Origin: Candidatus Poribacteria bacterium
GTDB taxonomy: Bacteria; Poribacteria; WGA-4E; WGA-3G
Direction: 5' to 3'
NCBI GenBank assembly: GCA_963663765.2
Contig: CAXXUA010000002.1
Span: 128,001-192,000 of the forward strand
Length of the DNA: 64,000 bases
Shown here: piece after piece, positions 207 to 62,945 of the stretch
Position numbering within the stretch: the stretch's first letter is position 1
Layout of the letters: the number at the start of each line of letters is the position of its first letter
Translations under genes and position numbers: made by a program
Notes under the pieces: generated by a model
What the model saw: the letters and a program-made list of their open reading frames with translations, nothing else
Told to the model about the DNA's origin: nothing
Database searches by the model: none

Positions 207-1601
207 ATGTCCACCACATTTCTCAGACAACTTTTTCAACCAAAAAATATCCCGAAGGTATCAATATGGACGGTGTCAATCCTACTGCTATTCTTTGGGT
301 TTTATGCAAACACGTGGGATGTTGCTGATCAACAATGGTTTGATAGCCATCAACGAGGCACAGAGAGTTTAATAATGGGGAGGATTGTACAATCGCGCCA
401 ACATGGAATCTTATCTGCTGGAGGTCTAAATGGGTATGGAACTTTGCAGAAAGTAGAGCAGCAATGGATTACATCGTCACAAGCAGAAAATCAATATGCA
501 GCATTTTTAAACGGTCTGACCTTTGATGAATATAAGACATACAAATCACAACCTGGTGGACAAGGCATTATATTCAGTCTACTTGATAAACTCCTTCCGT
601 TGTCACCTACCGTCAAGTTAAAATTCTTCTATTTTTTAACTGCTTTTCTATCTGCAATCGCACTGACCGCAATCATTGCTTGGTTTTACGAAGAATTCGA
701 TTGGATAGTTGTGTTATTCGTATTAGTATCAGCTGTGATGTCTCAATGGTTGACAGTGTTTGGTAAAAACCTTTGGTGGAGTCTATGGGCTTTCTATCTA
801 CCTATGATCGTTGTCTTGTATTACCTTAAACATAACAGAGAAACAGAAAACAGACTACCCATCAAATTTGGACTTCTTATTCTCATCTCCGTTTTCATAA
901 AGTGTTTGATCAATGGGTTTGAATACATAACAACCACTTTGGTTATGATGATGGTACCATTAGTCTACTATGCTATCTTAGACAAGTGGAATAGAAAGCA
1001 ATGTCTCAAATTTGCTTTTATAGCAGGAATTGGTTCAAGTGTCGCAATATTCTTGGGACTTACCTTGCTATGCATTCAGATTGGTGCTGTTAAAGGTAGT
1101 TTCTCGGATGGAATTGAACATGTGGTATATTCATTTGGAAAGCGTACACACGGACAAGCTGAAGGATTTCCTGAAATCTATGCACCAAGTCTTAAAGCAA
1201 GTACAATAGACGTGCTCAAATCTTATGTAATTGGCAATGCAAAAGGCGTTTTCTTTGATTTCAACAATTATTTGAAGACTTCAAACTCCTTCATTGCTAA
1301 ACATTTATTCAAACTACGCTATTATTACCTGTTAATACTATTCTTGATAATGTCTGTTTCACTTCATTTTCGGAGTAGAGGTGAAATAGAACAGAATCGA
1401 CAACAAAACATTGCATTAATCTGGACAACTTGGTTTGCTGTATTAGCGCCATTATCGTGGTATGTGATTTTCAAAGCACATTCACAAATACATCTGCACA
1501 TGAGTTTTCTGTTATGGCAGATGCCTTTTACGCTCTTTGGTTTCGCTCTTGTTGGTGCATTACTGAGTAGAATAGTGCAAAGAGATTACCAAGTTGCATG
1601 A
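207..1601 (+). CDS. Polytopic membrane protein, possibly GT-C-fold glycosyltransferase-like
   Basis: 464 aa with many hydrophobic segments and a large loop after TM1; no diagnostic motif recognised. Confidence 0.5.
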   Translation: MSTTFLRQLFQPKNIPKVSIWTVSILLLFFGFYANTWDVADQQWFDSHQRGTESLIMGRIVQSRQHGILSAGGLNGYGTLQKVEQQWITSSQAENQYAAFLNGLTFDEYKTYKSQPGGQGIIFSLLDKLLPLSPTVKLKFFYFLTAFLSAIALTAIIAWFYEEFDWIVVLFVLVSAVMSQWLTVFGKNLWWSLWAFYLPMIVVLYYLKHNRETENRLPIKFGLLILISVFIKCLINGFEYITTTLVMMMVPLVYYAILDKWNRKQCLKFAFIAGIGSSVAIFLGLTLLCIQIGAVKGSFSDGIEHVVYSFGKRTHGQAEGFPEIYAPSLKASTIDVLKSYVIGNAKGVFFDFNNYLKTSNSFIAKHLFKLRYYYLLILFLIMSVSLHFRSRGEIEQNRQQNIALIWTTWFAVLAPLSWYVIFKAHSQIHLHMSFLLWQMPFTLFGFALVGALLSRIVQRDYQVA

Positions 1602-2857
1602 ACAGGTTTTTCAAGTGCTTTTTCATATAGGTTTTCCCACTCTTTTGTTCCATCATCAAGAGTTAACTCAAGACGTGCACCTTCCACATAAGCATCACCA
1701 TTGCCAGCGTTAAAATAACTCAATCCATCTCCTGCCATGTGAATACAACTTCCATCTGGGTAGACAGCAGTTTTTATTATTCGTGGGTGCGGATGAATGG
1801 TATATCCATCAGCATCCAATTTTTCTTTGGGAACACGGAAACGTTTGATAGCTTCTTCATCTACCTCAACACCTAAACCAGGGGCATCAGGGACTGCATG
1901 GCATCCATCTACAACTGTAATCGGTTCTGTAAGAAGATGTTCGCTGTAAAGATTGATGCATGTAATAGCTGGCCAAGTCGCATGTGTTAACACACTCCCA
2001 AGATGTGCTGCCCATGTTGTTGTCAAACCGTTTCCTACGATTTGCAGCCAAAACGGCATATCGGCAGCAGCACTGAGGTAACCCTCGCGCATTACTTGAG
2101 ATTTTCCACCACCGATCACAAAACCGTTGCAGACATCCTCCTGAATGCATGTGGTATAGGGTGGTGAACCGAAATGCATCGCAATTGGACACTCAGTGTT
2201 TTCAACTATCCTTTTATTACCTTCAACATCTCCTTGAGGTATTGGGGATTCAAATATAGCAACATTCGGGTGTACAGCAAGTTTTTTCAGTATGGGTATA
2301 GCAGTATCAGCATCACGTAGAGAACTGTTGGGGTCTAAGTCCAGTTTGAAGTCTTCAGGAACGACTTCTGCGACTGCCTCGACTTGCTCAAAAATATCCC
2401 ACCATGGGCGCGGTTTGTTTTTAAAACTTGTATATCCACTTTTGACTGCATCTGATGCTTCGGCTGCCCAATTCTCAGGTGAGGAGTCAATACACCACCA
2501 TGAAATTGGTACTGTCTCACGACATTTCGTGTCAAGCAACCTAAATACTGGTACTTCCAATATTTTACCTACAACATCAAAAAGAGCCATCTGTAAGCCG
2601 GCGCCGAGTGAGTCATCATGTATGAGTTCAGCTGGGTTGTTTCCAAGAACACGTTCAACGCTGTGGTCACTCACACGACAGTATGTGTAATGGATAACGG
2701 TCTCTCCCCAACCAATATGACCGGTATCTGTTGTTACCTTACACAGTTCAAGCAGTGACCAGTTGTAAACTGTGGAAACGCTCTGTCGTGTTATTTCTTG
2801 TTGTCGTGACGTAAATGGAACATCAACGTGGATACGTTCTATGTTAGTAACTTTCAT
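1586..2857 (-). CDS. Mandelate racemase/muconate lactonizing enzyme family (enolase superfamily)
   Basis: GWGE N-domain motif, KNK (KxK), LDPN, FESP, PDAPGLGVEVDE. Confidence 0.85.
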   Translation of the reverse strand: MKVTNIERIHVDVPFTSRQQEITRQSVSTVYNWSLLELCKVTTDTGHIGWGETVIHYTYCRVSDHSVERVLGNNPAELIHDDSLGAGLQMALFDVVGKILEVPVFRLLDTKCRETVPISWWCIDSSPENWAAEASDAVKSGYTSFKNKPRPWWDIFEQVEAVAEVVPEDFKLDLDPNSSLRDADTAIPILKKLAVHPNVAIFESPIPQGDVEGNKRIVENTECPIAMHFGSPPYTTCIQEDVCNGFVIGGGKSQVMREGYLSAAADMPFWLQIVGNGLTTTWAAHLGSVLTHATWPAITCINLYSEHLLTEPITVVDGCHAVPDAPGLGVEVDEEAIKRFRVPKEKLDADGYTIHPHPRIIKTAVYPDGSCIHMAGDGLSYFNAGNGDAYVEGARLELTLDDGTKEWENLYEKALEKPVHATW

Positions 2858-3082
2858 ATTTCATGTATTCCTTTAGGGTGCAATTTACAAATAGAATACC
2901 AGATACACTAAAAATGTAAAAGAAATTAATAACGTTCAATTTCATGTATTTTTGCTGATTGGTTTGTCATAATTTCAACTTGACTCTATCAATAAACAAT
3001 GTTATTCTTATCACATAAAAAGCATAAACTGTTCATGCTAAGAAAATCAACAAACTTATGTTATACCATTTTCATGTGATAA

Positions 3083-3184
3083 TGTCTCATTAGCAGCGGA
3101 AATCTGGTAGGAGCGACCTCCCGGTCGCTCCTACCGAAGAGAGTAACCCCCTGCCAGTAAACATTAGAATTCCTTAATGAGACA
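3083..3184. repeat. Small MITE-like element with 10-bp TIR and internal REP-like palindrome
   Basis: TGTCTCATTA (3083-3092) and TAATGAGACA (3175-3184) enclose GGTAGGAGCGACC..GGTCGCTCCTACC. A related degenerate copy lies at about 40496-40597. Confidence 0.55.
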
Positions 3185-3230
3185 AGATTTATTTGAATTG
3201 GTATTAGTAGAAACAATGAATGGAGAATTT

Positions 3231-4289
3231 ATGGAACCAGTAAGAATAGGGGTTATAGGATGTGGCGTCATAGGAAGTAGACATCTTAGTATTGCAAAGG
3301 ATTCCGATCATATAGAATTGGTTGCAGCAGCAGATCTAATAGACTCAAATAGGGAACGTGCAGCAGAACGTTTCAATCTTTCGAATATATACGACAATGA
3401 TATTGATCTGCTTGATAATGATGAAATTGAGGCAGTTGTTCTTGCCTTTCCAACGCAATATCGGACAGAAGTTGCATTGCGCGCCTTTGCAAAAGGAAAA
3501 CATGTCCTGATTGAAAAACCGATTGCAATGAATGTTGACGAGGTGAATCAACTGATTGAAGCCAGAGGAGATTTGGTGTCTGCGTGTTGTTCATCACGGA
3601 ATCGCTTCAACAAAGCAGCAAGACTTGCTACGGAGCTTATTACAACCGGTGGTATCGGAGACTTACGCACAGTTCATTGCCGTGCGATAAGAGGGTGTGG
3701 CAAAGAACCTGGATCACCGAGACCCGCATGGCGGTTAAAAAAATCACTCAACGGCGGTGGAATCCTTGTCAATTGGGGATGTTATGACATTGATTTCTTA
3801 CTCGGTATCACTGGTTGGAAACTCAAACCACGAACCGTATTAGCACAAACGTGGACGGTACCACCGAAATTTGAATCGCACATTGCTCCCGGGTCTGACG
3901 CAGAGACTCACTATAATGCATTGGTTACGTGTGAAGATGGAACGGTGATTACGCTTGAACGTGGTGAATTTATGACTACGCATTCCCATTCAGATTGGGA
4001 AATCATCGGTTCCGATGGTTCTTTGAAAATGAATATGGGAGATGGAAACCCAAGCAAAATTACGCATAACCAAATTACGACTGCTGATGGTGTAATTTCT
4101 AACCCACTTGAAGATACCGGTGATACGGAAGGTCCCCATTATGGTGATCCAACAACAGATTTTGCAGCAGCTATCCGTCAAAATCGACAACCCTTAACCA
4201 GTTTGGAACGTGCTTTTGTCGTTCAGCAGATTACAGATGGTATCTACGCATCGGCTGAGTCTGGAACGGCGGTAGATATTTCAGATTAA
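3231..4289 (+). CDS. Gfo/Idh/MocA family oxidoreductase
   Basis: IGVIGCGVIG Rossmann motif, HVLIEKP, GGG. Start moved to ATG 3231 (GGAG upstream); the ORF-track start lies in a repeat. Confidence 0.88.
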   Translation: MEPVRIGVIGCGVIGSRHLSIAKDSDHIELVAAADLIDSNRERAAERFNLSNIYDNDIDLLDNDEIEAVVLAFPTQYRTEVALRAFAKGKHVLIEKPIAMNVDEVNQLIEARGDLVSACCSSRNRFNKAARLATELITTGGIGDLRTVHCRAIRGCGKEPGSPRPAWRLKKSLNGGGILVNWGCYDIDFLLGITGWKLKPRTVLAQTWTVPPKFESHIAPGSDAETHYNALVTCEDGTVITLERGEFMTTHSHSDWEIIGSDGSLKMNMGDGNPSKITHNQITTADGVISNPLEDTGDTEGPHYGDPTTDFAAAIRQNRQPLTSLERAFVVQQITDGIYASAESGTAVDISD

Positions 4290-10182: not shown

Positions 10183-10304
10183 CAGGACTTACGCACCCAA
10201 CGGTAGGCGTGCTTTGTAAGCGCGCTGGAAACCGAAAATATGCTGAAAATTACACCATTTTCGTCATTATTCTTCATCAAACCATGAAAACTGCGTAAGT
10301 CCTG
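10183..10304 (+). mobile_element. MITE family A copy, empty allele
   Basis: Perfect TIRs; TSD TTTAG at 10178-10182 and 10305-10309. Confidence 0.9.
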
Positions 10305-10396
10305 TTTAGAAGAAGTAGAGAATAGAGGTAGAGTGACAGTATCTAAATATCTACATATTACTAGACATTCCTTGATATTTATGTGATACTATATAC

Positions 10397-10984
10397 ATGA
10401 CTTATGTATCAGCGCGCAAAGCAAGTGAGCTGCTGGATTATACACCTGACCATTTACGGAGGTTGGCAAATGAAGGAAAGATTGATATTATCCGCACAGG
10501 AGGCGGACACAGACGCTATGATGTTGACGGATACATCAAAAGCAAATCCACATCAATTGCAACTGTTTGCTACTGCAGAGTATCCAGCACAAAGCAAAGA
10601 GAAGACCTTGAACGACAAGTTGAATATATGCGAAGTATCTACCCCGAAGCAGAAGTTATCCGAGACATCGGAAGCGGAATCAACTTCAAAAGAAAAGGGC
10701 TTAGAACCTTATTGGAACGGCTTATGCAAGGTGATAAGCTCAAAGTTGTTATTGCCCATCGGGATAGACTCGCCCGCTTCGGTATCGACCTTATACGGTA
10801 CCTCATTGAACAAAACGGTGGCGAACTCGTGGTTCTCGATCAAACAGAACACAGTCCGCAAGAAGAACTCACGTCGGATCTTCTCGCAATCCTGCACGTC
10901 TTCAGTTACAGAATGCACGGACTCCGAAGTTACCGTGACAAAATCAAAGAAGATAAGAGTTTATCCGACAACAGAACAACGTGA
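10397..10984 (+). CDS. tnpA: IS607 transposase TnpA (HTH + serine recombinase)
   Basis: N-terminal HTH with TGGGHRRY, catalytic YCRVSS, DIGSGINFKR, DRLARFG. Confidence 0.95.
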   Translation: MTYVSARKASELLDYTPDHLRRLANEGKIDIIRTGGGHRRYDVDGYIKSKSTSIATVCYCRVSSTKQREDLERQVEYMRSIYPEAEVIRDIGSGINFKRKGLRTLLERLMQGDKLKVVIAHRDRLARFGIDLIRYLIEQNGGELVVLDQTEHSPQEELTSDLLAILHVFSYRMHGLRSYRDKIKEDKSLSDNRTT

Positions 10985-12053
10985 AACACTGCGTCAGTGG
11001 TTTGGCACAGCACGTTTTACTTATAATAAAACAATTGCTTTGTTGAACGAAACAGACACAAAAGCGAATTGGAAAGCGATAAAAACAGGTATTCTTCACG
11101 ATCTTCCTGATTGGAGCAAAGAAACACCGTATCAAGTGAAATCTGTTGCTATCCGTGACGCTTGTATTGCTGTCCGAGAAGCAAAGCGAAAATGCAAGAA
11201 AACAGGTCAATATCAGTCTGTTTTTTTCAAATCCAAACGTCATCCATCAGATAGTATTTTCATACCAAAGTCTGCTATAAAACCTCGCGGTGTTTATCAC
11301 ACAGTGCTTGGTGATCTCAAAATGTCCGAGATGTTACCTGATAATATCTGTGACTCACGCCTCGTGAAAGAGAATGATAAATACTATCTCTGTGTTTCCT
11401 ATACTGTGACAACTCCGAAGCGAAAACCAAACGGAAGTGTTGTTGCTTTAGACCCTGGCGTGAGAACATTCCTCACATATTTCCATGAGCGTGGTTTCGG
11501 ATGGCTTGGACACCATGCTATCAATCGGATTCAAAGACTTTGTTCATACCTTGATAATCTTTTATCCCGTGCAATAAAAGCGACACAACAATCACGCAAG
11601 AATATGAGACGTGCTGCAAATCGCATCAGAAAACGTATCAGATATCTTGTTGACGAGTTGCATCATAAAATAGCACGTTTCCTTGTGGATACCTTTGATA
11701 TTATCCTACTCCCTACTTTTGAGACTTCAGATATGGTAATGCGTGGAAACCGCAAACTACACAAGAAGTCTGCCCGACAAATGTTGACACTGTCGCACTA
11801 CAGATTCAAACAGTTTCTAAAGCACAAAGCGAAAGAGACTGAATGTCTCGTCATTGATGTCTGTGAAGCATACACATCAAAAACAGTGTCGTGGAATGGT
11901 GAGATTAGAAAATCACTCGGTGGACGAAAGATAATAAAAGATAGCATGGGACTCAAGATGGACAGAGACTTGAATGGCGCACGCGGGATATTTTTGCGTG
12001 CTTTGGTAGATGAACCCTGGTTGCTTTCTATAAGCAACTTGCAAACCGTATAA
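10404..12053 (+). CDS. tnpB: IS607 TnpB with Fanzor-like rearranged RuvC; true start uncertain
   Basis: KIRVYPT..QWFGTARFTYN, ALDPGVRTF, ILLPTFE, CEAYTSK, DRDLNGARGI. Confidence 0.9.
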   Translation: MYQRAKQVSCWIIHLTIYGGWQMKERLILSAQEADTDAMMLTDTSKANPHQLQLFATAEYPAQSKEKTLNDKLNICEVSTPKQKLSETSEAESTSKEKGLEPYWNGLCKVISSKLLLPIGIDSPASVSTLYGTSLNKTVANSWFSIKQNTVRKKNSRRIFSQSCTSSVTECTDSEVTVTKSKKIRVYPTTEQRETLRQWFGTARFTYNKTIALLNETDTKANWKAIKTGILHDLPDWSKETPYQVKSVAIRDACIAVREAKRKCKKTGQYQSVFFKSKRHPSDSIFIPKSAIKPRGVYHTVLGDLKMSEMLPDNICDSRLVKENDKYYLCVSYTVTTPKRKPNGSVVALDPGVRTFLTYFHERGFGWLGHHAINRIQRLCSYLDNLLSRAIKATQQSRKNMRRAANRIRKRIRYLVDELHHKIARFLVDTFDIILLPTFETSDMVMRGNRKLHKKSARQMLTLSHYRFKQFLKHKAKETECLVIDVCEAYTSKTVSWNGEIRKSLGGRKIIKDSMGLKMDRDLNGARGIFLRALVDEPWLLSISNLQTV

Positions 12054-12111
12054 GATGTGAAATGCACAGCATTGCACGGAAATATACAGGTTAATATCAT
12101 CGGAGTAAATT

Positions 12112-13005
12112 GTGTTGAAGAGATTTCGTGTTTTTTTATTGTTGATACTATTGTTTTGCTTGAGTCCTATCATAATGGGGAACGACACAGCAAAAGTCTA
12201 CTTACCGGACAACCTCGGCAGTTCTTGGGTTTATGTAGATCAAGATGGAAAGGAATTCACTCGTTACGCTGTTGAGGAAAAAGCTATTGATGGCGACATC
12301 TTTCGTGCTTTCAACTATGAACCTGAAATAGAAGATTGGGAACAATATCGGTATCATATACACACATCTCTATATCAGGTCGCTGAAGAGTGGGTTGCAT
12401 TCTACGTTGGTAAGGACATTGAAAACGCTACAAAAACAATCCTCGGTAAACGATTAGAAGATATTATTGCTAAATTACGTCAACAAACAGCAATAAAACT
12501 ACCAGCAGGAATCACCATAGACTTCAAACACTCAGTTAAGCCTAATTCCAAAGATTTTTTCTATCTTTTACCTACGAAAATAACTCTAAATCAAGAATGG
12601 GTAGCTATGCAACTTGATATAAATATGAAAATAACTATGGATATTAAAGGCGCCCCTGTTGACATATCAAATGAATTAAAAACCATTTCATCAACAATAA
12701 ATGTTGTTGAGAAAGGGAACATCATTGGAAGAGAGAATGTGAAAACCGAAGCGGGAACTTTTAAAAATTGTCTGAAAATTGAATATCGCTCATTAACTAC
12801 AACAAAAACAACCGCTGCTTCAGAGATAAAGCAACTACTACCTGAACAGAAACCAAATGAAACTACTACCACACTTTGGTTAGCACCTAATGTCGGAATT
12901 GTCAAATTTACAAGCGAGAAGGAACAATCTGACGAAAAAACCATATACGAACTGAAAAGTTACGAAATAAAATCTGATGATTCGGACATCAGTGATAATA
13001 ATTAA
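12112..13005 (+). CDS. Secreted protein, one repeat of a DUF3108-like beta-rich domain
   Basis: Signal peptide; W.Y.DQDG.E and V.T.AGTF..CLKI.Y...TLWLAPNVGIVK motifs; GTG start. Confidence 0.65.
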   Translation: MLKRFRVFLLLILLFCLSPIIMGNDTAKVYLPDNLGSSWVYVDQDGKEFTRYAVEEKAIDGDIFRAFNYEPEIEDWEQYRYHIHTSLYQVAEEWVAFYVGKDIENATKTILGKRLEDIIAKLRQQTAIKLPAGITIDFKHSVKPNSKDFFYLLPTKITLNQEWVAMQLDINMKITMDIKGAPVDISNELKTISSTINVVEKGNIIGRENVKTEAGTFKNCLKIEYRSLTTTKTTAASEIKQLLPEQKPNETTTTLWLAPNVGIVKFTSEKEQSDEKTIYELKSYEIKSDDSDISDNN

Positions 13006-13057
13006 CCAACAGAACTATTTATTTTCAAAACTTTCTGCTATTTTTTGAGGAGCAATT

Positions 13058-15787
13058 ATGCTTAAGAGAATCTGTTATCTCATGTTGATCATATTTATGT
13101 TTTGCTTATGTGCTACTTTGTTGGGTGAAGAGTCTATGAAAGATTTCTTTCCTGTAACTCATGGAAGTACTTGGGTATATGTCGACCAAGATGGAAATGA
13201 AATGACATTAAGCACAATTGAAGGTGAAGAAATTGCAGACAAGATATATCACGGATTTAGCCAAGAACCTGAAATAAAGGATTGGATAAACTTCAATCGT
13301 TTTATGCTTCCAACGCTGTGTCATATTGGAGAAGAAAATATTCAATTCCTCGTTGGAGATGAAGTAGAAAAAGCAGTCAAAGCGCGATTCAACAGAGAAT
13401 TTACACTTTTGTCTAAGTTAGCAAAGAACGCAATAGAGAACGAATTACCAGACGAAGTGAATGCCAGTGTCAAACTCAATTATGATGTTGAAGTGGAATC
13501 AGATGACCACTTCAATCTGCTGATGGTCAAAGCTGCACCTGAAGAAGAATGGGACACAATTCAAATCAAAGCAAAAGTGGAAATGGAATACGACATAAAG
13601 GGTATCCCAGACTTTCCAAATGCTGAAGAGATACCTACATTCACCTTTAACTTTACTATTAATGAATCTGGAAAGATCCTTGGAATGGAAACTGTTAAGA
13701 CCGCTGCTGGAACATTTGAAGATTGCTTGAAAATTGAATACAGAACTGAAACTGAAATGAAGTCAAACGCACCAGCAGGCGACCCTGAGGAATCTCCAGG
13801 TGAATCAATTACGACTTTATGGTTAGCTCCTAATGTTGGCATTGTAAAATTTCATCAAGAATCAAAGATGATATTTATGAGTATGTTGTCAGAAAGAGAC
13901 CTTGTACAGACTTCACCGTCTGAGCAAGAGGTTACTGAAATCACTAAACCAAAAGTAAGAACCTTTGAACTCAAGAAATATGAAATCAAAACAGGTGATA
14001 AAGGAAGCAAAGAGATAATATCTAAAAATGAAACCGAAACAGAAAATGAACAACCAAAAAATGCTGCAAAATCACATAATTATTTTCCAAATACCTTGGA
14101 TAGTTTTTGGGTTTATGAAGATCAGGATGGTACTGAACTGAAACGCATTGCTATTGAGGGAGAGGAAATTGCTGGAGAAATATATCCTGCTTTCAGTTAT
14201 GAACCTGAGTTAGAAGACTGGGTAAAATATAACTGTTTCATGTATCCATCTTTATACAACATTAGCGATGAGGGTATAAAGCTTGTTGTAGGTGAAGAGA
14301 TAAAGAAATCAGTTAAAACACGCTTGAAAAAAGAAATAGATTTAGCCTTTGGAAAACTCTTAGAAACTGCACCAGAAGGAGCAAGTATTGATTCTGAAAT
14401 TGATGTCAAGGGACAAGACAAATTTCTTTTGCTTCCGAATGAAACTGTTGGAAATGAAGATTGGGATTCAAACAAAGTTGAAGCTAAAATAAAATTGACA
14501 TTTAGTGAGGCGGGTATTCCGGAACCGCATTCAATGACTTTCAATTTCACGATAATTGAGACTGGAATTGTGGTGGGGAAAGAAACTGTAAAAGTTCCTG
14601 CTGGAACCTATGAAAATTGTCTGAAGGTACAATACATAACAGATACAACCCTTTCAACGATTCCTGAGGAAATTGTTGATGATACAGATCCTGCTGGTGA
14701 AACCGTTACAACCTTATGGTTTGCAGAAAATGTCGGTATCGTCAAATTTCATCAGAAACGCAAACACACCTTTATAGAAATAATCCCAGATGATGATTTG
14801 CCATTTGCACCCGAGGATCCAAAAGACATTACCTTTGAACTCAAAAAATTTGCAATAAATACTGGTGATAAAGGAAGCGATGAGATAAAATCAGAAAATG
14901 AAAACAAAGTAGAAAACGAACAACCAAGAAATGAACAAACTGTAAAAGACGCTGCAAAATCACATAATTATTTTCCAAATACCTTGGATAGTTTTTGGGT
15001 TTATGAAGATCAGGATGGTACTGAACTGAAACGCATTGCTATTGAGGGAGAGGAAATTGCTGGAGAAATATATCCTGCTTTCAGTTATGAACCTGAGTTA
15101 GAGAATTTCACAAAATTCATTTCTTTCATGCATCCATCTTTATACAACATTAGCGATAAAGGAATAAAACTTGTTGTTAGTGAGGAGTTGAAAAAATTTG
15201 TTAAAGCAAGTCTGAAAAATGAAATGGACTTTTTAATAGATAAAAATAGAGAATTAATGACAGAAAATGAAAAAATTGACTTTGATATAGAAGTACAGAC
15301 ACAAGACAACTTACTCCTTTTATCCAACACCACAGTCATAAATGAGGAATGGGATGTAAACGAGGTTGAAGCTAAGATAAAACTAACAGTTAGTGATAAG
15401 GATCAACAAAGACCACAAGAAGAAATAACTTTCAATTTCACGATAATTGAATCAGGAAATGTGATTGGTAAAGAAACAGTTATAGTGTCTGCAGGAACAT
15501 TTCAAGAATGTCTCAAAGTTGTGTATAAAACTGAAACTTCGTTTTCAATGATGCCAGATGATGATTCTGATGAAACAGATCCGCCAGGAGAAACTGTAAC
15601 AACCTTGTGGTTTGCACCAAATGTAGGTATCGTCAAGTTTCATCAGAAAAGAAAATATACTTTCTTGGAGATTATTCCTGATGATGCAGGATTTCCAATG
15701 CCACCCGATCCAAAGGACATTACCTTAGAACTTAAAAAATATGAAATCAAGACTACAGAACCTGTAATTGATGAACAGGGTAAATAA
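13058..15787 (+). CDS. Secreted protein, three repeats of the same domain
   Basis: Signal peptide; three DQDG...[13 protein letters not shown] units. Confidence 0.7.
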   Translation: MLKRICYLMLIIFMFCLCATLLGEESMKDFFPVTHGSTWVYVDQDGNEMTLSTIEGEEIADKIYHGFSQEPEIKDWINFNRFMLPTLCHIGEENIQFLVGDEVEKAVKARFNREFTLLSKLAKNAIENELPDEVNASVKLNYDVEVESDDHFNLLMVKAAPEEEWDTIQIKAKVEMEYDIKGIPDFPNAEEIPTFTFNFTINESGKILGMETVKTAAGTFEDCLKIEYRTETEMKSNAPAGDPEESPGESITTLWLAPNVGIVKFHQESKMIFMSMLSERDLVQTSPSEQEVTEITKPKVRTFELKKYEIKTGDKGSKEIISKNETETENEQPKNAAKSHNYFPNTLDSFWVYEDQDGTELKRIAIEGEEIAGEIYPAFSYEPELEDWVKYNCFMYPSLYNISDEGIKLVVGEEIKKSVKTRLKKEIDLAFGKLLETAPEGASIDSEIDVKGQDKFLLLPNETVGNEDWDSNKVEAKIKLTFSEAGIPEPHSMTFNFTIIETGIVVGKETVKVPAGTYENCLKVQYITDTTLSTIPEEIVDDTDPAGETVTTLWFAENVGIVKFHQKRKHTFIEIIPDDDLPFAPEDPKDITFELKKFAINTGDKGSDEIKSENENKVENEQPRNEQTVKDAAKSHNYFPNTLDSFWVYEDQDGTELKRIAIEGEEIAGEIYPAFSYEPELENFTKFISFMHPSLYNISDKGIKLVVSEELKKFVKASLKNEMDFLIDKNRELMTENEKIDFDIEVQTQDNLLLLSNTTVINEEWDVNEVEAKIKLTVSDKDQQRPQEEITFNFTIIESGNVIGKETVIVSAGTFQECLKVVYKTETSFSMMPDDDSDETDPPGETVTTLWFAPNVGIVKFHQKRKYTFLEIIPDDAGFPMPPDPKDITLELKKYEIKTTEPVIDEQGK

Positions 15788-61523: not shown

Positions 61524-62945
61524 CTGACATACTCCCCAAGCTAAAGCATGGGGGTTCTTAGTTCTTATATTGGAAACGGTTTGAGTTTTTTCCAAACGAC
61601 TTTTCCTGCTTCCGTGTCTCGTGCCCTTTCCTGAACAGCGTTGGGTCTTATTTGCACTCCACAGGCGTGACTTTCGGTGTGTCCCACCGTAGTTGGTTTC
61701 AAGTTTATTGCAGCGTTGACATCTCTATCTATAGACATATCACATTGACTGCAGTGATACATTCTTTCTGAAAGTGTTAGGTCTTTCTTTTGGTGTCCAC
61801 AACCGGAACAGGTTTTACTACTTGCAAAGAACATATCTGCTTCTTTGACAGGTATACCGTGCACTTCTGCTTTTGTCTTGAGTTTTAGCAGGAAACCGCC
61901 TAATGCTGTATCTGACAATGCTTTTGCGAGGTTTCTGTTCTTCAGCATATTAGTAACCTTGAGTGTCTCAATACCGATCGCAGATGCAAGGTTGACAATC
62001 TCTGTAGTTGCTTTATGATGTGCATCGTTTCGGATACAAGCGATACGATAGTGGATACGTTCTAACTTGTGTTTTTGTTTGAACCAGTTGTTAGACTTGA
62101 AAACTTTTCTACTTAATCTACGTTGTTCTCTTGCTAACTTCTTTTCATATCGTTTCAGGGGTCTTGGATTATCATATTTCGTGCCATCACTCAATGTGGC
62201 AAGTGTGTTGATGCCTACATCTATACCAATCACAGGGTGCGTTGAGTTATCAACTGCTTCGGTGTCCTCTGTTTCTATGGTGATAGATACAAACCAACGA
62301 TGTGCTGTCCTTGAGATCGTCACTTTCATAATCTTACCCACAAAACGCAATGATTCAAACATGCTAATCCAACCAATCTTAGGAAGTTTGATACGCTTAC
62401 CTTCAACTTCTACAGATTGATTATTTGTGGTGAATGCGTCCTTTTTGCCACGCTTCTTGAACTTCGGAAATCTCGCACGCTTACCAACCCAATTCGCAAG
62501 CGCAGCAGACAAGTTACCAAATATGCTTTTATTGGCTACAACCTGATCCATATCTTTAGTCCAAGTATGTGCTTTCTTAGCAATATTAAATCGAGTGTTT
62601 AACTTCGCAGCGGATAAGAACTCATCATTTGCCAATGCAGACTTGAAATCTGCTAATGCATGATTATATGCAAATCTCGCATAGCCACACTGTTGTGCAA
62701 ACCATTTTCGTTGATTGTTATTTGGATTCAATGTAATCTTATGTGTTTTTAGCATGATGATATTCCAGTCCTATGAAGACGTCAGTTCCCTCTACTAAAG
62801 GTGTGTAGGTGTTAGTAGCACCTACACTGAACTGGTATAATGAGTATCTCATGTTTTAAACCAAAAATCAAGTTTTTTCTTGACACAAGCACTTAGCACG
62901 ACTACATCCCACTACCTAAAGGTAGGGGGTTTGTCGTGATTCTTG
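61524..62945 (-). mobile_element. Non-autonomous IS200/IS605 (IS1341-like) element
   Basis: Subterminal hairpins CCCCAAGCTAAAGCATGGGG (about 61534-61553) and CCCACTACCTAAAGGTAGGGGG (about 62908-62929); no tnpA. Exact ends inferred. Confidence 0.8.
61565..62755 (-). CDS. tnpB: Canonical TnpB RNA-guided nuclease
   Basis: GIDVG, GIETL, SSKTCSGCG..CSQC, DRDVNAAIN. Confidence 0.95.
   Translation of the reverse strand: MLKTHKITLNPNNNQRKWFAQQCGYARFAYNHALADFKSALANDEFLSAAKLNTRFNIAKKAHTWTKDMDQVVANKSIFGNLSAALANWVGKRARFPKFKKRGKKDAFTTNNQSVEVEGKRIKLPKIGWISMFESLRFVGKIMKVTISRTAHRWFVSITIETEDTEAVDNSTHPVIGIDVGINTLATLSDGTKYDNPRPLKRYEKKLAREQRRLSRKVFKSNNWFKQKHKLERIHYRIACIRNDAHHKATTEIVNLASAIGIETLKVTNMLKNRNLAKALSDTALGGFLLKLKTKAEVHGIPVKEADMFFASSKTCSGCGHQKKDLTLSERMYHCSQCDMSIDRDVNAAINLKPTTVGHTESHACGVQIRPNAVQERARDTEAGKVVWKKLKPFPI

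Follow-up and report, generated by a model that had tools for sequence, protein, structure and literature searches.

The locus described here raises the question of what kind of nuclease a bacterial tnpB gene encodes when its RuvC active site is rearranged, its zinc finger is gone and its reading frame runs upstream across the transposase gene. The gene lies in a 64,000-nucleotide stretch of DNA (the window; all positions below are counted from its first letter) from a Candidatus Poribacteria bacterium, namely positions 128,001 to 192,000 of the forward strand of contig CAXXUA010000002.1 in GenBank assembly GCA_963663765.2. A sequence-only reading of the window had described the open reading frame (ORF) as an IS607 TnpB with the Fanzor-type active site and no zinc-finger cysteines, in an apparently non-cyanobacterial host, and had called it a candidate compact RNA-guided nuclease. 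The reading that we favour, with a probability of about 80%, is that of a recently mobile insertion sequence (IS) of the IS607 family, whose TnpB has a DPG motif and an alternative catalytic glutamate, carries an N-terminal arm overprinted on tnpA and comes with a guide RNA.

The active site of the window TnpB aligns with that of a mimivirus Fanzor2

The positions picked out by the sequence-only reading all proved correct: the ORF, the DPG of RuvC-I, the proline at 11712 in place of the canonical RuvC-II glutamate, the glutamate at 11865, 51 residues further on, and the DRD of RuvC-III (Table 1). The TnpB domain set (helix-turn-helix (HTH)/WED-REC-RuvC-TNB) was recognised by family models, with NF040570 guided_TnpB at E 2.2e-38 (132.6 bits, cut-off 100) and HTH_OrfB_IS605 (PF12323), OrfB_IS605 (PF01385) and Cas12f1-like_TNB (PF07282) of Pfam all above their cut-offs. 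The match to the NCBIfam IS607_TnpB model was weak (E 2e-9, 36.9 bits against a cut-off of 350).

Among solved chains, the best relative by both sequence and fold was the mimivirus Fanzor2 ApmFz2 (chain 9b0l, ‘TnpB-like protein L79’), and the protein did not group with canonical TnpBs. A phmmer search with the single sequence gave E 9.6e-25 for 9b0l; the next best match, an AI-designed nuclease, was at 1.1e-5 and ISDra2 TnpB at 0.015, with canonical TnpBs and Cas12f at the 1e-5 level or weaker. With a profile of 19 sequences the values were 8.4e-33 for 9b0l against 1.3e-9 for the next chain, and with a full-length profile of 66 sequences they were 3.6e-58 against 1.4e-22. Foldseek ranked 9b0l best for an AlphaFold model of the core (E 4.1e-20, template modelling (TM) score 0.69), followed by ISDra2 TnpB (4.4e-16). 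In the VIA structural alignment of the full-length model 9b0l again came first (Z 28.8, root-mean-square deviation 3.8, 416 residues aligned), and the fold also matched 8h1j, 8exa and 8iaz at Z 23–26.

The first homologue search and the first fold used a 372-residue form of the protein. In the phmmer alignment, D173, E311 and D345 of this form fell on residues 324, 467 and 501 of 9b0l; in the 527-residue numbering used from here on they are D328, E466 and D500. Asp324, Glu467 and Asp501 are the catalytic triad of ApmFz2, seen with Mg2+, and Glu467 lies 50 residues away from the canonical place (PMC11832414). The alternative glutamate (E467) is essential in ApmFNuc, and such enzymes are reported to cut their targets without collateral activity (PMC10530073). 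The Fanzor-type triad that had been read from the letters is therefore matched residue for residue by a solved Fanzor2.

Relatives of the protein are numerous. A word-indexed homologue search returned 3365 proteins at E <= 0.001 among 4378 candidates, and an exhaustive search of 50%-identity representatives returned 6777 at E <= 0.001 and 1041 at E <= 1e-30. When the query was aligned with the best 150 cluster representatives, the RuvC-I aspartate was kept in 147 of the 151 rows, the proline of DPG in 141, the proline at the canonical glutamate position in 144, the alternative glutamate in 143 and the RuvC-III aspartate in 145. Because they are kept in 141–147 of 151 rows, the DPG, the proline, the alternative glutamate and the DRD are, as judged from this alignment, traits of the family and not the product of chance. 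The spacing of Pro415 and Glu466, 51 residues apart, is that of a RuvC-II-rearranged nuclease. Three features of the bacterial pro-Fanzors are also present, namely the DPG, Pro415 and an alternative glutamate six residues before the first zinc-finger position (E466-AYTSKT-V473). Glu418 (in the motif FET) was considered as the alternative catalytic residue and ruled out, because only 79 of 151 rows have glutamate at that column and ApmFz2 lacks it there.

The window holds a second TnpB of 396 amino acids (61565–62755, minus strand), which is canonical, as had been noted earlier. It has D, E, CxxC..CxxC and DRD at the aligned columns, the normal glutamate of its IGIETL motif falling on the proline of the first protein, and a C4 zinc finger. 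Its match to the IS200_TnpB model (E 5.3e-91, 305 bits) is under the 425-bit cut-off. Next to it are a gene for a PstB-like ATPase and a lipoprotein-like ORF, but no transposase gene.

The zinc-finger cysteines are absent from a large clade

The two CxxC positions are occupied by VSWN and DSMG, and there is no cysteine between Glu466 and DRD, so that the CxxC x12-18 CxxC of the pro-Fanzors is missing, just as the letters had suggested. Cysteines between the alternative glutamate and RuvC-III were counted in 152 rows, which included the canonical TnpB of the window as a comparator. There were none in 67 rows (a few of them truncated), one in 18, typically reading TCSWSGE, two in 1 row and four or five in 66. 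The pattern of Yoon et al., DPG x120-160 E x6 CxxC x12-18 CxxC x4-8 D (PMC10711439), matched 50 of 151 family rows, the query not among them. Since this pattern demands CxxC..CxxC, the cysteine-free clade is undetectable by it.

A FastTree of 210 rows grouped nearly all the cysteine-poor rows in a single clade (n = 147, support 98). The addition of 78 viral rows, for a total of 288, enlarged this clade to 191 rows, again with a support of 98; 157 of these had no cysteine, 30 had one or two, 1 had four and 3 were undetermined. Two rows from giant-virus metagenome-assembled genomes (MAGs), L165 and L167, with four cysteines each, served as stand-ins for Fanzors and fell in the basal zinc-finger grade. 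Because the tree sets the cysteine-poor clade apart from this grade, the window protein, for all its Fanzor-type catalytic layout, lies on a derived, cysteine-free side branch, as far as sequence and a root set by a single outgroup can place it. The Fanzor-lineage placement first proposed thus stands for the catalytic layout; for the branch it does not, the protein belonging to a derived sister clade outside the grade that holds the giant-virus copies. According to Altae-Tran et al. (PMC10691335), some large branches of TnpBs have lost the zinc finger; a large cysteine-free sister clade goes beyond the searchable published texts.

Does a protein without these cysteines still cut DNA? It might instead have become an RNA-guided DNA binder or regulator, like TldR, or a cofactor of transposition. 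All four zinc-finger cysteines are gone, one Poribacteria lineage (L025–L028) has DRA and yet stays multicopy, and repeated inactivation and exaptation of TnpBs has been described (Altae-Tran et al., PMC10691335). A nuclease that has lost its zinc finger could be weaker or altered, and we found no literature report of activity for any cysteine-free member. The trees are, moreover, quick FastTree runs with the window's canonical TnpB as their only outgroup. These points weigh against an active nuclease of the Fanzor lineage. On the other side, the catalytic residues are all kept, here and in 143–147 of the 151 rows, and the IS around the gene is complete, mobile and multicopy, with its tnpA and its guide-RNA scaffold. 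Conservation extends to the cysteine-free segment, which is modelled with confidence (predicted local distance difference test (pLDDT) 85–89 in the model from a deep alignment; <50 in the shallow model). Loss of nuclease function is therefore improbable.

The tnpB frame appears to encode an N-terminal arm over tnpA

A more conservative view of the gene is that the nuclease is only the 372-residue core starting at GTG 10935, that the frame upstream is an untranslated by-product of tnpA and that the long ORFs are artefacts of gene calling. The Pfam and NCBIfam matches do begin at residue 179 of the 549-residue ORF, and NCBI annotations of cyanobacterial relatives start later, at various points, giving 363–420 amino acids. 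A profile of the arm has no significant match, and arm residues 1–78 are predicted to be disordered.

The frame was followed in genomic loci, which were the best 80 of at least 516 stretches encoding relatives in species-representative genomes. In these loci and in the window, the tnpB frame was mostly open for 133–205 codons upstream of the core. A methionine ∼155 codons upstream of the core was present in most loci and opened the arm frame in 60; ATG 10404 (549 residues) was common to the closest relatives only. Stops were counted over the 150 codons before the core in the 52 loci with an intact tnpA at the standard spacing. The tnpB frame had no stop in 44 of the 52, with TnpA identity going down to ∼50%. 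The third forward frame of the same loci had a mean of 8.8 stops. Synonymous codon shuffles within each tnpA gave a mean of 4.5 stops and were free of stops in 0.6% of trials.

The residues of the arm were also conserved. The motifs PYW..C..ISS.LLLP and NKTV..SWFS were kept across Poribacteria, cyanobacteria and Latescibacterota. Trp121 was present in all 61 loci compared, although the TnpA residue at this place was valine (48), leucine (10) or methionine (3), with a codon that was always NTG. Where it was valine the codon was GTG in 48 of 48 cases, compared to 12 of 553 valine codons elsewhere in these tnpA genes. Trp82 (60/61), Leu93 (61/61) and Ser120 (61/61) were likewise kept while the TnpA residue changed. 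The nucleotide entropy at tnpA third positions in the overlap was 1.01, compared to 1.51 at the non-overlapping third positions of the tnpB core.

The long ORF is thus the better reading, because both the open frame and the conservation of Trp121 exceed what tnpA alone would lead one to expect. An ORF of 527 or 549 residues appears to be real, with selection acting on the overlapping frame, and the GTG 10935 start was dropped, as the open-frame, shuffle and conserved-residue tests favour the long ORF. Several observations count against this conclusion. The overlap still has a nucleotide pattern dominated by the codon positions of tnpA, the arm frame contains one to four stops in 8 of the 52 loci, the Shine-Dalgarno-like 4-mers found upstream of the methionine in 42 of 61 loci have no control, and it is not established from the sequence whether 10404 or 10470 is the start. 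Set beside the residues kept through TnpA changes, the conserved methionine and the open arm frames of the viral loci described below, they leave a nuclease made only from the core decidedly improbable. Production of the arm as a TnpA–TnpB fusion by a programmed +1 frameshift early in tnpA, like the IS3-type OrfAB, is very unlikely: the frames do overlap by >500 nt and the tnpB frame opens 7–73 nt from the tnpA start, but the arm frame of 60 loci begins with a methionine whose position is conserved, no slippery motif was seen (none was sought) and the N-terminus of ApmFz2 is described as a free arm and not a recombinase fusion (PMC11832414).

With a conserved length of ∼527 residues the protein is not especially compact, and this part of the first description falls away. 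Among 116 representatives that included the N-terminus of the core, 54 had at least 120 extra residues. Because these long N-termini were split between 24 with four cysteines and 24 with none (the other 6 had one or two), the arm occurs both in proteins that have the zinc finger and in proteins that lack it. Relatives are encoded by 252 stretches in IMG/VR, and 80 loci were kept. A same-strand tnpA lay upstream in 72 of them, the arm was present and open in 54, and tnpA was nested in an arm frame open for at least 120 codons in 52. The arm was present in one (L165) of the two giant-virus MAG loci checked for it. This locus (a giant-virus MAG contig of IMG/VR, ∼1377–3018) has a C4 zinc finger and the same nested architecture. 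Its tnpA starts 535 nt upstream of the core, within an arm frame open for 184 codons, and its arm has the sequence NKTILNSWF.

Two departures from the usual arrangement were seen in Poribacteria. In one MAG (L015, match 2501–4036), the tnpB match is ∼420 nt longer and the arm frame extends only 5 codons upstream from the core before it closes; this copy probably carries an insertion or rearrangement. A second Poribacteria lineage, at 52–56% identity (L050, L052, L057, L064, L065, L071, L078, L081, L089 and others), differs in its right-end sequence and in the greater length of its 3′ non-coding part, and some of its members have one or two stops in the arm frame.

The arm may correspond to the N-terminal domain of Fanzor2

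Residues 53–130 of ApmFz2 form an N-terminal domain which the structure paper describes as unseen in other TnpB structures (PMC11832414). Within it, residues 65–91 (RuvC-R) complete the RuvC fold, with Asn82 and Ser83 touching the pseudoknot pair at −3, and residues 109–130 form a basic ‘thumb’ on the target DNA (PMC11832414). In the VIA alignment, residues 78–517 of our model were superposed on residues 53–518 of the 9b0l chain. The alignments with other TnpB and Cas12f chains began at model residues 151–157, and those with CasX/Cas12e at 113–114 with a far lower Z. The full-length profile aligned ‘tvekSWF’ of the arm with IETNSWY of ApmFz2 (chain 79–85).

The full-length model, built from 66 sequences, had a pLDDT of 76 and a predicted TM score of 0.70, compared to 0.54 for the first core model from a shallower alignment. 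In this model residues 1–78 were disordered, and residues 79–98 and 109–138 were structured. The modelling makes it likely that the arm is homologous to the Fanzor2 N-terminal domain. Other results count against the homology. The pLDDT of the arm was uneven (83, 68, 43, 61, 81, 52 and 38 in blocks of ten from residue 81), the arm-only profile (alignment A5) had no match to 9b0l in the PDB at E <= 10, its best PDB matches being unrelated (E 0.22 and 2), and Pfam had no family for the arm at E <= 10. Because the arm-only searches were empty, the case for homology is built from the position of the arm, a short motif and a model of uneven confidence.

We lean, by a little, towards a broader proposal: that the N-terminal domain of Fanzor2 arose in bacteria by overprinting, and so was no invention of eukaryotes or their viruses, that the whole lineage with DPG and the alternative glutamate nests tnpA in this way, and that the Asn-Ser-Trp motif reads the guide-RNA pseudoknot.

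The element is a recent IS607 insertion

Upstream of tnpB and overlapping it lies tnpA, which encodes a serine recombinase with an N-terminal HTH. This is the IS607 gene order, and the assignment to this family made earlier was borne out: positions 10397–10984 matched NF033518 (IS607 family transposase) with E 1.4e-51, together with Pfam Resolvase (E 9.9e-19) and a MerR-type HTH. A search of the window's own genome found five copies of the element with 99–100% identity. Their common part runs from the GG at 10327–10328 to the GG at 12102–12103 and their flanks are unrelated, so we delimit an element of 1777 bp without inverted repeats. The same two ends were found in 20 related Poribacteria loci, and among distinct right ends from relatives the terminal bases were TCGG in 60 of 61 and TCGA in 1.

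A congener (G023), of the same genus and without this IS, has an empty orthologous site that consists of the left flank, one GG and the right flank (...GATAGA-GG-AGTAAATTGTGTTGAA...). The insertion is recent and of the IS607 type, by crossover at GG. As is usual for IS607 ends, terminal inverted repeats are lacking and the target is not duplicated except for the GG that both ends share. Of 22 anchored insertions, 18 had GG at the anchor and 4 did not, two of them through mis-anchoring; 3 further rows were unanchored. Because the two bases before the GG were purines in 18 of these 18 insertions, 5′-RRGG is suggested, from the sequences, as the target or target-adjacent motif (TAM). A GGG TAM is reported for both ISXfa1 (PMC10711439) and ApmFz2 (PMC11832414).

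Table 1. Features of the IS607 element and its tnpB gene in the window (residues in 527-residue numbering)
Feature	Position	Strand	Basis
Whole IS607-family element (1777 bp)	10327..12103	+	Common span of own-genome copies; GG at both ends; no inverted repeats
Suggested target or TAM-like motif 5′-RRGG (here GAGG; GG is the crossover dinucleotide)	10325..10328	+	Purines before GG
tnpA, serine recombinase (195 aa)	10397..10984	+	NF033518, Pfam Resolvase, MerR-type HTH
tnpB, longest ORF (549 aa)	10404..12053	+	ORF list
Conserved start ATG (527 aa)	10470	+	7 nt after GGAGG (10459-10463)
Putative N-terminal arm of TnpB (155 aa), in the +1 frame over tnpA	10470..10934	+	Open frame, conserved residues
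Trp82	10713-10715	+	Conserved in arm
Asn-Ser-Trp-Phe 119-122	Trp121 at 10830-10832	+	Conserved in arm
RuvC-I DPG (Asp328)	11451..11459	+	Invariant in alignment A4; aligns with Asp324 of ApmFz2
Pro415 at canonical RuvC-II Glu position (ILLPTFE)	11712..11714	+	Aligned to Glu of the window's canonical TnpB
Predicted alternative catalytic Glu466 (CEAYTSK)	11865..11867	+	Invariant in A4; aligns with Glu467 of ApmFz2
Degenerate zinc-finger segment, no Cys	11886..11951	+	VSWN (11886-11897) ... DSMG (11940-11951); alignments A1, A2
RuvC-III Asp500, last Asp of DRD (MDRD)	11967..11969	+	Invariant in A4; aligns with Asp501 of ApmFz2
Predicted guide-RNA scaffold	11977..12103	+	Overlaps 3′ end of tnpB; covariation
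Long-range pseudoknot-type helix	12009-12013 (GAUGA) with 12097-12101 (UCAUC)	+	Covariation
Predicted guide: flank directly after right-end GG	12104..12119	+	Conservation limit; G023 site

Two other features flank the element. Directly upstream (10183–10305) is a 123-bp repeat resembling a miniature inverted-repeat transposable element, with 13-bp terminal inverted repeats. It has ∼45 further copies in the same genome (78–99% identity), is absent from the orthologous site of G023 and is covered by one 105-nt contig from an RNA library; its fold was no better than shuffles (z = −0.7 and 0.0). The downstream genes (12112–15787) encode secreted-looking proteins with a repeated module of ∼290 residues (FP...GS.WVY.DQDG ... 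TLW.APNVGIVKF), which has many internal and paralogous DNA matches across the genus.

A predicted, covarying guide-RNA scaffold ends at the terminal GG

TnpBs are guided by an RNA (the right-element RNA (reRNA) or omega-RNA) taken from the end of their own element. Among 17 elements of the Poribacteria type, conservation extended from the 3′ part of tnpB to the terminal GG and then stopped, with a flank that was unrelated in every locus. The RNAalifold consensus of the conserved part had four stems, with compensatory changes in 13 of 38 pairs.

A long-range helix stood out, in which a GAYNN sequence pairs with the last five bases before the GG; its 5′ half consists of the Asp codon and two further bases of an ALVDxP motif. 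Every one of the 62 loci could form at least four of the five pairs and 60 could form all five, through eight sequence combinations (e.g. GAUAC/GUAUC, GAUGA/UCAUC and GACAC/GUGUC). When the tails were randomly re-dealt, none of 5000 shuffles reached the observed pairing. The single-sequence fold of 11975–12103 also contains the helix (−39.6 kcal/mol, z = −2.64). Depending on a small GGU/ACC hairpin, it would be modelled as a pseudoknot or as a junction-closing helix. It corresponds to the pseudoknot that is required in the ISXfa1 reRNA (PMC10711439) and to the one seen in ApmFz2 (PMC11832414).

The covariation and the limit of conservation together give the structured guide RNA expected of a TnpB, here as a predicted RNA. 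An Rfam scan of 10200–12300 at E <= 1 found no family, only two matches at chance level (mir-254 and NsiR1). The 16 bases that follow the right-end GG are identical in the empty site of G023, and from known TnpBs we infer a guide of this length.

The family extends far beyond cyanobacteria

Taxonomic labels were available for the genomic loci and not for the representative proteins. Among the best 80 genomic loci, 33 were from Candidatus Poribacteria MAGs, 42 from cyanobacteria and 3 from Latescibacterota. The 20 closest loci among the matches listed, at 63–94% identity, were all from Candidatus Poribacteria MAGs, in agreement with the non-cyanobacterial host that had been proposed; a poribacterial host, judged from these relatives, is almost certain. 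A cyanobacterial host, stated to be exclusive for the pro-Fanzors by Yoon et al., is therefore not found here, and the bacterial chromosome context likewise separates the element from Fanzor2, which belongs to eukaryotes or eukaryotic viruses. Within the phylum, 50 of 151 genomes had matches at E <= 1e-60, up to 8 per genome, mostly full length and without stops. They were 46 of the 99 genomes from the same family and 3 of the 26 from a second one; none of the 25 genomes from the remaining seven families had a match. The cysteine-free clade occurs in cyanobacteria, Poribacteria, Latescibacterota and phages.

One Poribacteria MAG has four copies, 77–79% identical, with DRA for DRD at RuvC-III (L025–L028). 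They retain the open arm frame, tnpA and the right-end RNA scaffold, and may represent a nuclease-dead lineage that is still multicopy.

Contigs from RNA libraries (four runs in two studies, labelled sponge metagenome and metagenome) cover 10330–12068 at 95–100% identity, and three of the four runs have nothing on the flanks. Because DNA may have been carried over into these contigs, which counts against them, they are only a weak hint of transcription.

A model for the element and what it would mean

In the model that we propose, the serine recombinase TnpA would excise and insert the double-stranded element by crossover at GG dinucleotides. A TnpB of ∼527 residues, from the DPG/alternative-glutamate lineage that would also have given rise to the eukaryotic Fanzors, would use Asp328, Glu466 and Asp500 as its RuvC triad, the catalytic glutamate being placed on the next β-strand and not at the canonical RuvC-II position (Pro415). 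A cysteine-free segment, conserved across a large derived clade, would have replaced the C4 zinc finger. The first ∼155 codons of tnpB, read in the +1 frame over tnpA, would give an arm like the RuvC-R and thumb of mimivirus Fanzor2, with an Asn-Ser-Trp motif whose counterpart there touches the guide-RNA pseudoknot. The 3′ part of tnpB and the right end would encode the guide RNA, in which the covarying helix ends just before the terminal GG and the adjoining flank would act as the guide. If it works as tested TnpBs do, the ribonucleoprotein would then cut the resealed empty donor site (5′-RRGG followed by the flank), and repair from the sister copy would restore the element. What the sequences themselves show is the make-up of the element with its copies and the empty site, the placement in the family with the mapped residues, the selection on the overlapping frame and the covariation of the RNA. 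We infer that the protein is an active nuclease, that it has a part in homing and which TAM it reads, as well as the choice of start codon and the function of the arm.

The origin of Fanzors is at present traced to a narrow group of cyanobacterial TnpBs, which was found by a four-cysteine pattern. The same catalytic layout is present in a much larger cysteine-free clade from sponge symbionts (Poribacteria, Latescibacterota), cyanobacteria and many phages. If the broader proposal is correct, the lineage is far wider than the cyanobacteria and the question of the Fanzor donor is reopened; a transposase and a nuclease would also be locked together in one stretch of DNA across zinc-finger, cysteine-free, phage and giant-virus members. 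Bacterial proteins would already bear the arm that the Fanzor2 structure paper treats as special, which bears on the origin of that domain. Databases mostly annotate truncated forms, and this matters where full-length enzymes are to be tested as genome editors. The overlap of ∼465 nt would further provide a clean natural case of long dual coding, and the element can be tested by standard E. coli assays.

Comparison with known systems

The rearranged active site and its link to Fanzors have already been published (Jiang 2023; Yoon 2023; Altae-Tran 2023; Schargel 2024). That the nuclease ORF engulfs tnpA, and there encodes an arm like the Fanzor2 N-terminus, goes beyond the searchable texts: full-text searches, which covered texts other than supplements and subscription papers, found no published statement of a tnpA inside the tnpB frame, and the main text of Yoon et al. 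(PMC10711439) does not contain the words overlap, N-terminal, frame or nested.

The ‘TnpB2’ proteins (Jiang et al. 2023, PMC10530073) and the RIIr clades (PMC10691335) likewise have proline or glycine in place of the canonical glutamate and an alternative glutamate ∼45–50 residues further on. Two RuvC-II-rearranged enzymes, TvTnpB and ApmFNuc, are reported to be active without collateral cleavage (PMC10530073). Unlike the window protein, TvTnpB is an IS605-associated archaeal protein. The ISXfa1 TnpB of Xylella fastidiosa (Yoon et al., PMC10711439) is similar to the present system in its GG crossover, required pseudoknot and GGG TAM, and in that a base of the right flank is part of the RNA scaffold. 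It is modelled beside the pro-Fanzor ISSoc2 in the legend to Figure 6 of the same paper (PMC10711439).

Like the window element, the pro-Fanzors (Yoon et al. 2023, PMC10711439) combine an IS607 context and a serine TnpA with the DPG and with a glutamate six residues before the zinc-finger position. Their ends are likewise GG crossover sites, and beside the guide their RNA has a conserved pairing of the pseudoknot type. They differ in the CxxC..CxxC cysteines, which the window protein lacks.

Mimivirus Fanzor2 (ApmFz2/L79, 9B0L; PMC11832414) differs in having a zinc finger, a giant-virus home and an N-terminal nuclear localization signal, and its identity to the window protein is 22–24%. The two are nevertheless alike in the catalytic triad, the IS607-type element, an N-terminal extension before the WED/REC core and the Asn-Ser-Trp motif, as well as in a G-rich TAM and an omega-RNA pseudoknot made from the last bases before the guide.

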